From a virus: a stretch of 64,000 bases of DNA. The stretch covers positions 1,291 to 65,290 of IMG/VR virus record IMGVR_UViG_3300050120_000053; one strand, given 5' to 3'. The number at the start of each line of letters is the position of its first letter. Positions within the stretch are counted from its first letter, which is position 1. Below, piece by piece: positions 2,602-16,251 of the stretch. The translations under genes and the position numbers were made by a program. The notes under the pieces were generated by a model. That model saw nothing but the letters and a program-made list of their open reading frames with translations. It was not told the origin of the DNA and searched no databases.

Positions 2602-3011
2602 TCGAATTCAACCCCCAAGGTTCCGGCGGCGTAGGCTTGAATAGCATTGAGGTAGGTAGAGAACTCCCCGACGCTCATCTTTGTGGTCGACTTGCGCAGC
2701 GTGACGATCTCGCCGTCAGGCAGAGTCACCTCGTCGAGCACACCGTACAGCCGCGCGAAATACTCGTGCCACGTGTCCTTGTCAAACTGCTTGCCGTCGA
2801 CCCACGCCTGCGCGGAAATATCGCGCAGCACAGCGCCCCAATAGAAACGGTTCTGGACTTCGTTGCGCTTGCGCTCTTCAGCGGTGACAATCACGCGCAA
2901 TGGCTGGCCCTTGTCGGCGCAACCGGGCGCGTTCGCTTTCACGAAGGCGACGAGCAGGTTCCAGACGCTGCCATTGCGAAGGGTGAACTCCTTGTAAAGG
3001 GCCGCGGTCAC
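2598..3011 (-). CDS. ninB: NinB-family recombination protein
   Basis: KRNEVQNRFYWG.VLRDIS.QAW...WHEYF...STTKMSVGEFSTYLNAIQAYAA. Confidence 0.85.
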   Translation of the reverse strand: MTAALYKEFTLRNGSVWNLLVAFVKANAPGCADKGQPLRVIVTAEERKRNEVQNRFYWGAVLRDISAQAWVDGKQFDKDTWHEYFARLYGVLDEVTLPDGEIVTLRKSTTKMSVGEFSTYLNAIQAYAAGTLGVEFE

Positions 3012-3457
3012 AGTTTCGCCTCGTAGCGTGCGATCATTGACCGGAGCTTTGCCGCCTGCTTGACGCTTTCCTTGGCCGCCATCCGGCGCGCGTAATAAGA
3101 CTCGTCGATCTCCTGATCGGGTTCGCCATGCGGTTCGCCGATATAGGAATTTCCGGTCTCGCTCGAATACTCAGCCAGCGCTGCGTTGTGCTTGCGCTTG
3201 GCGTCGAGCCATACCTTGCGCGCGCGGCGCACCTCGACAGCCTGAATCCCAATGCGCTCCAGATCGCTCACGTTTCTAGGTGCGTGTGACCCGGCCAGAT
3301 CAGTCCATTCAAGATCATTGACGTGGAACCAAGCGTCGCGGGCGGCGAGGTAGACAAGCCGAAAATCTCCATCGACTCGTCGCACAATTCCCGTTTCTCC
3401 AGATCGGGTATGCGTTACCAGCGTCCCCTTGATAATCATGCCGGGACTGACTTTCAT
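3008..3457 (-). CDS. Hypothetical phage protein
   Basis: 149-aa ORF with 4-bp overlaps on both sides. Confidence 0.6.
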   Translation of the reverse strand: MKVSPGMIIKGTLVTHTRSGETGIVRRVDGDFRLVYLAARDAWFHVNDLEWTDLAGSHAPRNVSDLERIGIQAVEVRRARKVWLDAKRKHNAALAEYSSETGNSYIGEPHGEPDQEIDESYYARRMAAKESVKQAAKLRSMIARYEAKL

Positions 3458-3768
3458 ACCGCCTCCGCTCTAACGACTTCGTCCGCGTACTGGACAGGTA
3501 TGCCGAGCATCTTGGCGATGCGGCGCTCTTCTCGGGCTCCGGAACTTGTGGACCAATTCGGCAGCATGTAAATCTCGTCCACGTCGCACAGCATGGCCAC
3601 GCACTTGCGCATATACATCTGCCACGTCGCGCCCGGGCCAAGATCCAACTCAGCCGGATTGACCACTAGCCAGCCGAGAGCGTCGAGACGGTTCGCGGCT
3701 GCGGTGAAGTGGTCGCGGTAATTTGGGACGTCGGTGATTGCGCCGGAGATGTAGATGGTGCGGCTCAT
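3454..3768 (-). CDS. DUF4406-family (nucleoside deoxyribosyltransferase-like) protein
   Basis: IYISGAIT...F..AA..L...G..VVNPA...W..YMR.C...L.D.D.IYML.NW..S.GA..E. Confidence 0.85.
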   Translation of the reverse strand: MSRTIYISGAITDVPNYRDHFTAAANRLDALGWLVVNPAELDLGPGATWQMYMRKCVAMLCDVDEIYMLPNWSTSSGAREERRIAKMLGIPVQYADEVVRAEAV

Positions 3769-4094
3769 GCTGTTATCTCTTCGGTTGCTTCATCATTCAC
3801 GGGCACGCCGCTGATGGGACGCATTGCAGAATCGGCAATCGGCCTTTCATGGACCATATGGACGCGTCCTTCGTGAGGACCATTGATGGAAATCCACGGG
3901 AGCGGGCGCGGTGAGCGAACTACCCAACAAAACCTAGTGGTCGTCGTACGGAAAGGAATACCATCCACAGTGGGGAACATTTCATTCTTTATGGCTGCTC
4001 GCACGATCTCCACAACTCTTCCCTTAAGTCCAGGAGTAGATATGGGCGAACCCGCCCCAACCACAATCGCCAAATCACCCGGCTTGCAGTTCAT
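3765..4094 (-). CDS. Hypothetical phage protein
   Basis: MNCKPGDLAIVV...IADSAMRPISG pattern typical of Burkholderiaceae phage ORFs. Confidence 0.7.
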   Translation of the reverse strand: MNCKPGDLAIVVGAGSPISTPGLKGRVVEIVRAAIKNEMFPTVDGIPFRTTTTRFCWVVRSPRPLPWISINGPHEGRVHMVHERPIADSAMRPISGVPVNDEATEEITA

Positions 4095-4771
4095 GCGGCC
4101 TCCAACATGACTTGATGCATCGCCACGGCGAACGGATTCATCGGCGCAGTTCTGCCCTTCTTACGGTCCATATATTCTTTGTGGCACTTGGCATGAGGCT
4201 TCAATTCCGGCTTCGGCACATTGGGCACCGATCCAAGGGCGTACTTAGGCGAAAATGACCCGCTGCCAGACGGCCGGGGCTGAATCCATCCAGCGATGTA
4301 ATATTTCTCGCCGCAGTACTCGCGCAGTTGTTCTGCGATGTATTCGGGAGAAGCAGGAACAATTTTGGATATTTCGCATGCCGTCAGTGCCCGGTGCTTA
4401 CTCAGTGCCCGGTCTATCTCTTCCCGGACCCACGAATAAGCGGTCGAGTGTTTCGTGTTCCCGCGTGGCTTAAGCCCGATCTTGTGCCCGCGCTCGACTA
4501 CGGACCGCCACGAGCGATTTGGGAGAAGGTCCATATGCAGTTTCAAGGGGCCCTTCATCTTCCACATCTTGCGGATGGCGGCGTCGTCTTCTGCGGTCCA
4601 CGGGAACAGAATCGGCTGGTCACGAACAAGACCCTTCCATCGGGCGCGGCATCGAATGGCCGACTCACTGCGGCCGGGCAGTTCGGCGAGCAATTTCCGA
4701 CCAGATATGCCCTCTTTCCATCTACGGGCGAGTAATTCGTCTTCGTGATTTGTCCGCGGTTTGCGGGTCAT
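4091..4771 (-). CDS. DNA-binding protein with repeated Myb/HTH-like segments
   Basis: LPGRSESAIRCRA..., WTAEDDAAIRKMW..., LPNRSWRSVVERG..., C-terminal HTH-like segment. Confidence 0.6.
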   Translation of the reverse strand: MTRKPRTNHEDELLARRWKEGISGRKLLAELPGRSESAIRCRARWKGLVRDQPILFPWTAEDDAAIRKMWKMKGPLKLHMDLLPNRSWRSVVERGHKIGLKPRGNTKHSTAYSWVREEIDRALSKHRALTACEISKIVPASPEYIAEQLREYCGEKYYIAGWIQPRPSGSGSFSPKYALGSVPNVPKPELKPHAKCHKEYMDRKKGRTAPMNPFAVAMHQVMLEAA

Positions 4772-7691: not shown

Positions 7692-8000
7692 TCAAACTTT
7701 TCCGTCGGGATCGACTTCGCCATCTGGCGGCTGAACGTCGTCAGAAGCTGCAGCGCGATCGACTGCGGTAGGCGGAGAATTGGACGCATCATTGACGCGG
7801 CCTTGATCCATCAATTCAGTCAAAAAGAGATCTGGGCGCTGCAGCTTTACCTCGGATGGAATGCCGCGCTTTTTCCAGTTTTGGATGCGTTGAACGCCAC
7901 CGGTAGTTTTGTCGTAACCCAGCAACTCAGCGAGTTTTGTGGGTCCGCCAAGACGCTCAATGGTCTGTCGGTCGGCTTCGATGTCGGGGTGTTTTGTCAT
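7692..8000 (-). CDS. cro: Cro-like HTH repressor
   Basis: IERLGGPTKLAELLG...QRIQNWKKRGIP; divergent from cI. Confidence 0.85.
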   Translation of the reverse strand: MTKHPDIEADRQTIERLGGPTKLAELLGYDKTTGGVQRIQNWKKRGIPSEVKLQRPDLFLTELMDQGRVNDASNSPPTAVDRAAASDDVQPPDGEVDPDGKV

Positions 8001-8074
8001 GGTGTTTCAATTAAACACCATGTTTAAGAAAAACGCAAACACTGAAAACACGACGTTTAACAACATTTTGTTTA
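7994..8074. promoter_or_regulatory. OR operator cluster (consensus TAAACA-N3-TGTTTA)
   Basis: Perfect site 8012-8026; degenerate sites 7994-8008, 8045-8059, 8060-8074 between cro and cI. Confidence 0.8.
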
Positions 8075-8093: not shown

Positions 8094-8885
8094 ATGAAAC
8101 AAGGAACTCACGAAACCGGATTGCGCCTGCTCGCGGCAGCTAAGGCGATAAAACAGGCGGATGGACCGTCGGATGTTGCTCGGCTTCTGAATGTGTCCCC
8201 GCAGACAGTCACTAACTGGACAAGGCGCGGCGTATCGAAAGAAGGAATGCTATTGGCCCAGCGCCTAATTGGGGTCAATGCAACGTGGATAGAATCGGGA
8301 GAGGGGCAGATGATCGACCTTTCTGCCCAGCACACTTCTGCCTCCGACCATCCTCCGGTCACAGAGGATAGAGACGCTCTAATTAAGCGTTTGCTTCCTG
8401 AGGGAAAAGGTAACGTTGTTGCCTGGGAAACCGAGGCTGATCTGCCCGACGACCCTGAGCGAGTCTGGATTGACCGCTTTGATTATCATTTTTCGGCGGG
8501 GTCTGGCTTGATTCAGTGGGAAGTGCGGGAGAAAAAGGCGTTGCCCTTCGACATGGGGTATTTCAAGGCGCTAGGTTCAAAACCCAAGGATTGCCGGCTG
8601 CTCGCGGTGCGGGGCGACAGCATGGAGCCGTATCTTTTCAACCGCGACATGATGATGATCGACTCCACACGCACCAACGTGCGCGATGGCCAGGTCTACG
8701 CGGTCTATTTCGAAGATGAGCCGCTGGTTAAACAAATCTTTAAACAGGTCGGCGGCGGCATTGTCCTGCATTCTTACAATTCCAAATACCCCGACAAGGA
8801 AGTCCACGCCGAAAGCATGGATCTAGTGAAGATCGTCGGCGAAGTGATACACCGGTCTGGGTCGGGGTTGGCCGGTGGCAACTGA
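8094..8885 (+). CDS. cI: CI repressor (HTH + S24 self-cleavage domain)
   Basis: N-terminal HTH (SDVARLLNVSPQTVTNWTRRG); SAGSG cleavage region, VRGDSMEP serine, VKQ lysine. Confidence 0.93.
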   Translation: MKQGTHETGLRLLAAAKAIKQADGPSDVARLLNVSPQTVTNWTRRGVSKEGMLLAQRLIGVNATWIESGEGQMIDLSAQHTSASDHPPVTEDRDALIKRLLPEGKGNVVAWETEADLPDDPERVWIDRFDYHFSAGSGLIQWEVREKKALPFDMGYFKALGSKPKDCRLLAVRGDSMEPYLFNRDMMMIDSTRTNVRDGQVYAVYFEDEPLVKQIFKQVGGGIVLHSYNSKYPDKEVHAESMDLVKIVGEVIHRSGSGLAGGN

Positions 8886-9458: not shown

Positions 9459-9544
9459 AAGAGGGGCCCGCATTCTCTTTGGAATTTCGGAAGGTATTCC
9501 TCATCGCGCGATGCGCCCATCAGGCGCGGAGATACCCCCATTAG

Positions 9545-9603
9545 AGCCCCGCCCCGAGCGGGGCTTCTCATTTGTGACCAGCCCGCAACGTGCGGGCTTT
9601 TTT
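9545..9603 (+). terminator. Two tandem intrinsic terminators ending the cI operon
   Basis: AGCCCCGC-cccga-GCGGGGCT and AGCCCGCA-acg-TGCGGGCT followed by a T run. Confidence 0.85.
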
Positions 9604-9644
9604 GCGTCCGCGCCACGCACGCCATAAAAAATATTCAACAATAT

Positions 9645-9685
9645 TAAACATGGTGTTTGACACATCTATAAACATGGTGTTTAAT
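9645..9685 (+). promoter_or_regulatory. pL promoter with two OL operators
   Basis: TTGACA 9657-9662, 17 bp, TTTAAT 9680-9685; operators 9645-9659 and 9669-9683. Confidence 0.88.
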
Positions 9686-9728
9686 AGCTCCATCGGTTCA
9701 GCAAACCCGCTGACCCCAGGAGCCCAAG

Positions 9729-9965
9729 ATGATCACCACCGACCGCACCGCTACCGCCGTCCTGCGAATCGTCTCGATCTCCCTTGGCGTCTCGATTTCC
9801 GACCTGAAGCTGACTGACCGCCTGGTTGATCTCGGCGCTGACTCGCTGGACGTCTACGAAATCATCATCGACCTTGAGAAAGAGTTCGACCTTGATATCT
9901 CGGACGAAGCCGCAGCCAAGTTTCAGGCGGTGCGCGATCTCGTAGATTTTTGCTACACGAATTGA
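9729..9965 (+). CDS. acpP: Acyl carrier protein (phosphopantetheine-binding)
   Basis: DLGADSLDVYEIIIDLEKEFDLDISDEAAAKF, close to AcpP DLGADSLD..E....LEEEF; attachment Ser39; acidic, 78 aa; RBS GGAG. Confidence 0.88.
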   Translation: MITTDRTATAVLRIVSISLGVSISDLKLTDRLVDLGADSLDVYEIIIDLEKEFDLDISDEAAAKFQAVRDLVDFCYTN

Positions 9966-9976
9966 GGAGTACTGAG

Positions 9977-10165
9977 ATGCCAGAGATTCAGAAATACCAG
10001 TTCCCGAGACTCACTTCCAACAAGAAGGAAGTGCTCTGCGTTCTCGGTCAATACGTGCTTGACCGAGAAGCGCGCGCCATGTCGCAGGATGACCGCGACG
10101 AACTGGTCAAGGATACCGCGAAGGCGATCCGCTCGATTATGGCGCTGCAGCCGAGGCACCTATGA
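9977..10165 (+). CDS. Hypothetical early protein
   Basis: RBS GAGGAG then MPEIQKYQFP... Confidence 0.65.
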   Translation: MPEIQKYQFPRLTSNKKEVLCVLGQYVLDREARAMSQDDRDELVKDTAKAIRSIMALQPRHL

Positions 10166-10482
10166 ACGCGCACTCAACCCCGGGCCGCGTTGACTTCGCA
10201 TCCGACGCCCTTCAGCAGGCACTCGACGACGCAGCCAGCATTGTTGCAGCCGCTGAAGAGGAAGCACGGTACGAGGTTACTCGCGGCGAAGTCCTTGACC
10301 ACATGTCGATGAACTTCACCCGGGCCGACGACAAGCTGTTTATGCAAGCACTCCGGCGCGAAGGTCGGCAAGACATCGCGATGATGCTTGACCTGATCCA
10401 GAAGTCTTTCAAGGCGGTAGTCGCGGAGAAGCGGAGCGCGATTCTGGCGAAGAAGGCTGAGCCGGATGACGGGATTCACTGA
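10162..10482 (+). CDS. Hypothetical early protein
   Basis: ATGA overlap with the upstream gene; helical 106 aa. Confidence 0.65.
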   Translation: MNAHSTPGRVDFASDALQQALDDAASIVAAAEEEARYEVTRGEVLDHMSMNFTRADDKLFMQALRREGRQDIAMMLDLIQKSFKAVVAEKRSAILAKKAEPDDGIH

Positions 10483-10490
10483 ATAGCAGG

Positions 10491-10679
10491 CAGTACGCAG
10501 TGGGGTGCCGTGGGGAAAGTGAAATGTGCTCAAGGGGATTAGCTATCTCGCTTGCGACATTGCGTAGTTTCGGGAGAGGACATGGCTCGGCCGGGCCGGA
10601 AAGTGTACCGAAATGAGGCTTAAATCCCGCCTAGCCCGCGCTAGGAGATTGCCGGTGGCCGGCGCCCCACTGCGTATTG
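10491..10679 (+). ncRNA. Putative structured RNA closed by a 20-bp helix
   Basis: 10491-10510 pairs fully with 10660-10679 (18 Watson-Crick + 2 G-U on the + strand); inner stems GGGATT/AATCCC, CCTAGC/GCTAGG and a G(CUUG)C tetraloop. Confidence 0.65.
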
Positions 10680-10739
10680 AACAGATTTTGTAGCACGGCA
10701 CCTGACCGACTCAGGCAACAACACGAGGGGTAGTTCCAA

Positions 10740-16108: not shown

Positions 16109-16132
16109 AGCCCGCCATATGCGGGCTTTTTT
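16109..16132 (+). terminator. Intrinsic terminator
   Basis: AGCCCGC-catat-GCGGGCT followed by TTTTT. Confidence 0.85.
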
Positions 16133-16205
16133 ACGTGGCGGGGGTTGGGGGGGGGGCTATCGGAAATGTTGGGTGATAGGAATGTTTGGCGTTTGATGAA
16201 TGCAT

Positions 16206-16251
16206 TAAACACCATGTTTCGTTTGACACACGTATAAACATGGTGTTTAAT
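16206..16251 (+). promoter_or_regulatory. Second pL-like promoter with two CI-type operators
   Basis: TTGACA 16223-16228, 17 bp, TTTAAT 16246-16251; operators 16206-16220 and 16235-16249; near copy of 9657-9686. Confidence 0.88.

Follow-up and report, generated by a model that had tools for sequence, protein, structure and literature searches.

What does a temperate phage from peat soil gain from an acyl carrier protein (ACP), and why does the gene for this protein stand at the head of one of its early operons? We addressed this question for a stretch of 64,000 nucleotides (hereafter, the window) that forms part of a virus record of 70,257 bp rated complete by CheckV. The coordinates of the features discussed below are compiled in Table 1.

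Table 1. Features of the ACP locus and of its regulatory region. Positions refer to the window unless a related contig (L number) is named.
Feature	Position	Strand	Basis
cro-like HTH gene, divergent from cI	7692-8000	-	Pfam, PHROGs (phrog_8008)
OR region: exact operator at 8013-8025 and degenerate copies at 7995, 8046 and 8061	7995-8073		
CI-type repressor gene (HTH + Peptidase_S24)	8094-8885	+	Pfam, PHROGs, match to Shewanella phage vB_Sb_QDWS
Two tandem intrinsic terminators closing the cI transcript, just 5' of pL1	9544-9604	+	
Operator OL1a, exact AAACATGGTGTTT, overlapping the -35 of pL1	9646-9658		
pL1 early-left promoter: TTGACA (9657-9662), 17-nt spacer, TTTAAT (9680-9685)	9657-9685	+	
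Operator OL1b, exact AAACATGGTGTTT, from the pL1 spacer into the -10	9670-9682		
Shine-Dalgarno AGGAG, 6 nt 5' of the ATG	9718-9722	+	Read from sequence
ACP gene, 78 aa, Ser39 in DLGADSLD	9729-9965	+	ORF list, Pfam, PHROGs, NCBIfam, PDB sequence match, AlphaFold2, Foldseek
gp62, small conserved early gene that follows the ACP in 6 related loci	9977-10165	+	
gp106, conserved helical early protein, translationally coupled to gp62	10162-10482	+	
Intrinsic terminator ending the ACP-to-exonuclease operon	16109-16133	+	Fold z -4.1
pL2: operators 16207-16219 and 16236-16248; TTGACA (16223-16228), 17-nt spacer, TTTAAT (16246-16251)	16207-16251	+	
ACP-gp62 slot gene, L087	307-564		
ACP-gp62 slot gene, L089	1111-1605		
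ACP-gp62 slot gene, L094	1291-1845		
ACP-gp62 slot gene, L092	45-599		

A stand-alone acyl carrier protein of the type II kind

The gene starts with ATG and encodes a protein with a pI of 4.06 and 16 acidic versus 7 basic residues, in which DLGADSLD occupies residues 34-41 and D38-S39-L40 lie at the N-terminus of helix II. A sequence-only reading of this DNA had proposed a 78-aa acidic ACP with Ser39 in that motif and had suggested a search with the PP-binding HMM. The profile searches bear the proposal out: Pfam PP-binding (PF00550) matches residues 11-74 with 43.6 bits against a cut-off of 20.8, and the PHROGs family phrog_5934, "acyl carrier protein", matches with an E-value of 2e-13 (51.3 bits). 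The two NCBIfam models for housekeeping-type proteins score slightly lower than their thresholds demand, with 62.4 bits for TIGR00517, the AcpP equivalog (cut-off 70.45), and 63.8 bits for NF002148 (cut-off 71). Against Pfam, PHROGs and NCBIfam, the ORF matched carrier-protein families only and showed no similarity to N proteins.

The best solved relative by sequence is the ACP of B. subtilis (49 bits), whose alignment covers residues 8-75 and contains a single one-residue gap, on the N-terminal side of DLGADSLD. An AlphaFold2 model built from an alignment of 60 sequences has a mean pLDDT of 85.8 and places helices at residues 4-19, 39-53, 59-64 and 68-77, with helix II beginning at Ser39. When this predicted model was compared with the PDB using Foldseek, the best 50 listed matches were all ACPs, with TM-scores between 0.76 and 0.94; E. 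coli AcpP in its complex with BioH (4etw_B) aligned at a TM-score of 0.88 and an rmsd of 0.9 Å. The four-helix ACP fold on which the earlier reading had staked its identification is therefore present in the model. Compared with the housekeeping AcpP of E. coli and B. subtilis (TIGR00517), the phage protein has the same fold (TM-scores of 0.84-0.94, rmsd of about 0.9 Å) at an identity of 37-46%, but it falls under the equivalog cut-off, is encoded outside a fab cluster and lacks one residue before the motif. We conclude that the product of the phage gene is a true ACP, free-standing and of the kind found in type II fatty-acid synthesis.

The record offers this protein no enzymatic company. The ACP gene is the only PP-binding gene in the 70,257 bp, and the same record contains no match to an ACPS/Sfp phosphopantetheinyl transferase (PPTase), a ketosynthase, an AMP-binding enzyme or a PlsC-type acyltransferase, so that the lack of fatty-acid, PKS and PPTase genes, which had been claimed for the vicinity, extends to the whole genome. 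Because the phage record is without a PPTase, covalent attachment of 4'-phosphopantetheine would need a host enzyme. A theme of lipid manipulation had also been suggested from the presence of a patatin phospholipase gene; the gene is there, but its tie to the ACP is a loose association, since it lies about 18 kb away, on the opposite strand, in the late/lysis region.

Orphan ACPs of phages are an already catalogued class, to which the window adds one member. Those of phrog_5934, such as ORF197 of Ralstonia phage RP13, gp111 of Xanthomonas phage phiXF1 and ORF32 of Erythrobacter phage vB_EliS-R6L, are likewise small, stand-alone proteins with an intact DSL serine, encoded among small early genes and with no fatty-acid-synthase, PKS or PPTase genes adjoining. 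The genes of 130-147 aa that follow the ACPs of RP13, phiXF1 and FL-1 match neither ACPS nor any other relevant Pfam family. The database examples differ from the window protein in that their identity to it is below 40-45% and they mostly come from large lytic or jumbo phages, whereas the window ACP belongs to a temperate phage and stands directly behind a repressor-operated promoter. Phage ACPs have been termed auxiliary metabolic genes of unclear function (PMC5463345, PMC10152775, PMC13573597), and a contact between a phage ACP and host FabZ was predicted computationally in 2026 (PMC13291599). Our literature search found no experimental study of any phage ACP, only annotations and that one computational prediction.

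The early-left promoter and its operators

The ACP gene had been described as the first gene of a CI-repressed pL operon, and the regulatory region agrees with that description: a CI gene with a divergent cro lies upstream, and two exact operators sit on pL1. The operator is a palindromic 13-mer, AAACATGGTGTTT, with half-sites AAACA and TGTTT. In the 64 kb there are five instances of AAACA-N3-TGTTT, where 0.07 would be expected; they lie at positions 8013, 9646, 9670, 16207 and 16236, so that within the window the 13-mer is confined to the gap between cI and cro and to two early promoters. Our promoter consensus scan overlooked pL1, as it demands an A at position 2 of the -10 element.

Along its whole length, the repressor shares 57.5% identity with "repressor protein C" of the cultured Shewanella phage vB_Sb_QDWS, which has the same 13-mer once at cI/cro and twice downstream of cI; the spacing of the OL pair is 24 bp in both phages, and the block GTTTGACA-N6-ATAAACATGGTGTTTAAT is kept in three promoters, namely pL1, pL2 and that of QDWS. 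Since a phage with a homologous CI has the same 13-mer in the same layout, we take the 13-mer to be the operator of this CI family, and the window phage and QDWS may be homo-immune. The immunity module of QDWS (OK094664.1) spans positions 2929-4261 and the rest of its genome is unrelated to the window phage; the first pL gene of QDWS encodes a 147-aa hypothetical protein, not an ACP.

At the level of sequence, the ACP is thus shown to be the first cistron of a repressor-operated early-left promoter, and we infer that CI represses pL1. Two small ORFs lie between cI and the tandem terminators, which fold with -33.1 kcal/mol (z -3.7). Given the operators of pL1 and these two insulating terminators, the ACP is predicted to be off in the lysogen and to be produced immediately upon infection or induction. 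A search of sequencing runs for this DNA listed no RNA run; the only run listed with the DNA in full was a peat metagenome, which may be the sample of origin. An isrK-like Rfam match over the tandem terminators (16.8 bits against a threshold of 50) was at chance level and was discarded, and Rfam gave no match at the gathering score for the whole window or the leader region. A 5-bp hairpin in the pL leader (9698-9715) was considered as a nut/boxB-like element and rejected, because it folds no better than shuffled sequences and its second arm is not kept in the related contig L101.

In that contig (positions 1226-1420) the same layout of terminator, promoter and leader is found, with the conserved leader ATCGGTTCAGCAAAC, but the operator repeats (AAATCATTTTG) and the repressor are different. 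This arrangement indicates that immunity modules have been exchanged before a conserved start of the early transcript.

Behind the ACP, the pL1 operon comprises gp62 and gp106, then a secreted two-gene cassette and a KTSC gene, and lastly a gene of 354 aa at the position of RecT and one for a YqaJ-type exonuclease. The second operon, pL2, encodes two small membrane proteins, an SNF2 helicase, a DNA methylase, Nmad5, a Lar-like protein and, lastly, the integrase. Since the pL2 promoter nearly duplicates pL1 and has its own terminator upstream, the early-left region would consist of two separately repressed units. The likeness to the pL operon of lambda (N, cIII, kil, gam, bet, exo, xis, int) is evident in the CI with a divergent cro, in the operators shared between OR and OL, and in the recombination genes and integrase downstream on the same strand. 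However, lambda makes one antiterminated transcript, while the window phage has two separate repressor-operated promoters (pL1 at 9657 and pL2 at 16223), each preceded by a terminator, and no N homologue; we found no sign of an N-type antiterminator in the early-left region. The suggestion that the ACP stands where lambda has N is therefore correct as to map position, but it has no counterpart in sequence or family similarity to N.

Neither gp62 nor gp106 belongs to a known family according to Pfam, PHROGs and NCBIfam scans. For gp106, the ESM Atlas gives a low-confidence helical model whose neighbours are only generic helical bundles, and a co-folding prediction of the ACP with gp62 and gp106, run without controls, scored 0.01, a value that we count neither for nor against a complex. 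A non-coding gap of 250-290 nt always lies 3' of gp106, before the secreted cassette (window 10483-10739, and also in L089, L094 and L087); in the window the gap has no match in Rfam.

The soil-phage lineage and its surface

Searches of INPHARED (tblastn and megablast), IMG/VR, GTDB and JGI metagenomes returned only generic ACPs of less than 50% identity. A word-indexed protein search gave four relatives, and an exhaustive protein search gave one relative at 73% identity followed by ordinary bacterial ACPs at 35-59%. The 73% relative lies on a 2.7-kb JGI contig (L002) that differs from the window in the genes on both flanks and is without gp106. Among the best general matches was also a 216-aa metagenomic protein (P0006) that carries a lipoprotein-type signal (…LASC) and two ACP domains, and which is apparently an exported tandem carrier protein.

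The ACP clade was recovered indirectly, by way of the adjoining gp106, which has a dozen homologues on contigs from soil and peat. Six of the nine gp106 loci (the window, L087, L089, L094, L099 and L100) have an ACP of this type just 5' of gp62-gp106; L101 and L102 have gp62-gp106 without the ACP, and none is visible in L092. As judged from the gene content of L101 and L102, the ACP is dispensable for this phage group. It is promoter-proximal in the window only: in the related phages it is the third or a later gene of the operon, following small ORFs, a KilA-N gene or an antirepressor gene, or it is absent.

The slot between the ACP and gp62 is either empty or filled by a gene of 85 aa (Cys-rich), 164 aa or 184 aa; these genes are mutually unrelated and lack a Pfam match, and by this variation the slot is a hot spot. 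From the stop codon of the ACP to the next start, the junction TGAGG-N-G-N-NCTGAGATG with a ribosome site is kept between the window (9966-9976) and L002 (1666-1680) despite unrelated downstream genes; it looks like a recombination joint at which modules of early genes are swapped. On the other side of the gene, an ORF of 42-45 aa that ends in ...VW(C/G) abuts the start of the ACP in L002 (1302-1430), L094 (906-1034), L099 (289-426) and L100 (1590-1727); it occurs in two versions of unrelated sequence and is missing in the window.

A phylogeny of the protein, which the sequence-only reading had recommended, was built from the clade, 71 representatives of ACPs in general and three phage ACPs from databases (RP13, phiXF1 and FL-1). 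The six soil-phage ACPs form one phage-specific clade with an SH-aLRT support of 99 and a stem of 0.53. The ACPs of RP13, phiXF1 and FL-1 are placed elsewhere in the tree, outside the window clade, which indicates that phages acquired ACPs more than once. Between the window ACP and its 73% relative dN/dS is 0.12, with synonymous change saturated; 20 columns, D34, L35, A37, D38, S39, L40 and D41 among them, show no variation in seven relatives, and the GC3 of the gene (0.72) is like that of the neighbouring phage genes. By these comparisons the lineage is shown to be small, phage-specific and, as substitution patterns measure it, under purifying selection.

The genome gives contradictory signals as to the host. 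The nearest relatives of the terminase are in Klebsiella phages (65%), those of CI are in Shewanella and Burkholderia phages, and a search for tRNA genes as a host clue found none. The terminase and CI signals indicate a mosaic, for which no host is assignable.

To describe the surface of the phage protein, we set each alignment column of the clade against 55 general ACP representatives, taking S36 of E. coli as the equivalent of S39. The recognition core is kept in the clade (D38, S39, L40, D41, E44, E50, E52, D59 and E60); the DSLD motif, the acidic core of helix II (D38, D41, E44, E50 and E52) and D59/E60 are common to the phage ACP and to housekeeping AcpP. In contrast, the clade is non-acidic at positions 17, 33, 51, 61 and 63, which are mostly Glu or Asp in the 55 general ACPs. 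These lost acidic sites correspond to E13, E30, E48 (Lys/Arg), E58 and E60 (invariant Ala) of E. coli, and at the pocket position where E. coli has I62 the clade invariably has Phe. The loss of the five acidic residues may weaken binding to some host enzymes; read from the alignment, it would fit equally well a specialised carrier with one dedicated partner. The window ACP has Ile-Ile-Ile where E. coli AcpP has L42-V43-M44, while the other members of the clade keep Met at the M44 position. In E. coli AcpP, each of M44I, V43E and L42M abolishes the binding of SpoT while fatty-acid synthesis stays functional (PMC3340395).

Possible roles in the early lytic cell

Since the phage has no PPTase or acyl-handling enzyme, and since the neighbours of the gene are freely swapped among relatives, we infer that the ACP must work through host proteins. 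[quoted passage not shown] The explanation we prefer, at somewhat less than even confidence, is that the phage ACP, once modified by host AcpS, competes within the host ACP network early in lytic growth and thereby curbs or redirects lipid and envelope synthesis. The strong promoter would deliver a burst of an ACP paralogue early in the lytic cycle; this paralogue would compete with host AcpP for AcpS and CoA, as well as for the enzymes that depend on ACP to make fatty acids, phospholipids and lipid A, and envelope lipid synthesis would be throttled or redirected as a result. The role of the protein would thus be host takeover, as is usual for genes at such a position in the operon, instead of a biosynthetic pathway of the phage's own.

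This interference model is an analogy with over-expression experiments in E. coli, in which any ACP (native, cyanobacterial or with Ser changed to Ala) suppresses growth, an effect ascribed to depletion of CoA, to inhibition of glycerol-3-phosphate acyltransferase by apo-ACP and to unproductive binding of enzymes (PMC4736557, PMC3896788). A second ACP beside the housekeeping one is also found in bacteria, and the reports on E. faecalis AcpB (PMC6509188) and on Acp1 and Acp3 of P. aeruginosa (PMC6158461) describe these paralogues as not needed for bulk fatty acid synthesis and show that a second ACP can serve regulation instead of biosynthesis. These are chromosomal host genes, unlike the phage ACP, and they are likened to it by role only.

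Several other explanations have to be weighed against interference. The label of auxiliary metabolic gene given to phage ACPs in the literature (PMC5463345, PMC10152775) corresponds to a productive carrier in the classical sense, one that host AcpS and FabD would load and that would sustain or re-tune the synthesis of host fatty acids, lipid A or acyl-homoserine lactones. The near-AcpP score against TIGR00517 (62.4 versus 70.45 bits) and the intact core for recognition by AcpS and the fatty-acid synthase, with its invariant Ser39, speak for such a carrier. However, host AcpP is already among the most abundant proteins of the cell (PMC3896788), which makes a supplement seem unnecessary, and a tailed phage needs no lipid; in addition, five acidic residues typical of AcpP are gone, and the tight shut-off in the lysogen by operators and tandem terminators suggests a product that is unwelcome in a growing cell. 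We regard a productive role as unlikely. It is hardly credible that the gene has no function and is a passenger, taken from a host and now drifting within an early region of mosaic make-up: its accessory nature, its absence from some relatives and its variable position in the operon would suit a passenger, but the low dN/dS in the face of saturated synonymous change and the 20 invariant columns, which include the whole DSLD motif, do not, nor do the drift of its composition to match the phage genome and its survival in at least six phages that are diverged and stem from different samples.

Other readings give the protein a single partner. The ACP could be a decoy, as the sequence-only reading had suggested, and imitate AcpP so as to block or trigger one specific non-lipid partner; SpoT, IscS, an SMC-type complex and an ACP-dependent defence protein are examples. 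In this role an orphan carrier without enzymes, expressed immediately early in an operon otherwise devoted to host-directed and recombination functions, would be at home. E. coli AcpP has partners of this kind, among them MukB, which is stimulated equally by apo- and holo-AcpP (PMC8602292), and a changed peripheral surface around a retained helix II core would suit selective binding. We nevertheless consider a decoy of this type distinctly unlikely, given that strict invariance of Ser39 is not required of a pure apo-mimic, that our literature search found no ACP-dependent defence system and that, with no host assignable, no candidate target can be named. For SpoT in particular, the window protein has the Ile that, as M44I, abolishes binding in E. 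coli (PMC3340395), a point that weighs only lightly because the relatives in the clade keep Met. A partner within the phage is also conceivable, with the ACP acting as carrier or subunit for gp62/gp106 or for the variable adjoining gene, either in the transfer of acyl or aminoacyl groups or, much as ACP serves LYR-type proteins, as a structural component. The ACP is directly upstream of gp62-gp106 in six of the nine gp106 loci and these two proteins belong to no known family, but neither carries an enzyme signature, gp62-gp106 occur without the ACP in L101 and L102, and the ACP occurs without gp106 in L002; a partner of this kind seems very unlikely. A sharper form of host takeover is possible, though doubtful: the ACP would be an immediate-early effector, an AcpP mimic evolved by the phage whose remodelled surface seizes one host ACP client and which is kept off in the lysogen because it is toxic. 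Candidates for such a client would be AcpS itself, an enzyme that makes phospholipid or lipid A, or a stress or defence protein that senses the state of acyl-ACP. If this mimic reading is true, envelope growth would be stopped or a host response blinded.

Phages as different as jumbo lytic viruses and small temperate ones carry orphan ACP genes. To this class the present locus adds a clean regulatory frame, in which the ACP is the first gene at a repressor-operated promoter and is shielded from transcription in the lysogen. It also adds a conserved lineage that is confined to phages and has a surface of its own. A simple prediction follows, namely that the product would harm a growing cell or show strong activity in it, working through host ACP clients. 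Although the phage itself is uncultivated, its ACP would be well suited to serve as the first orphan phage ACP whose function is tested. If the prediction proves true in a cultivable relative, a widespread class of supposed auxiliary metabolic genes would be explained as host-takeover factors.
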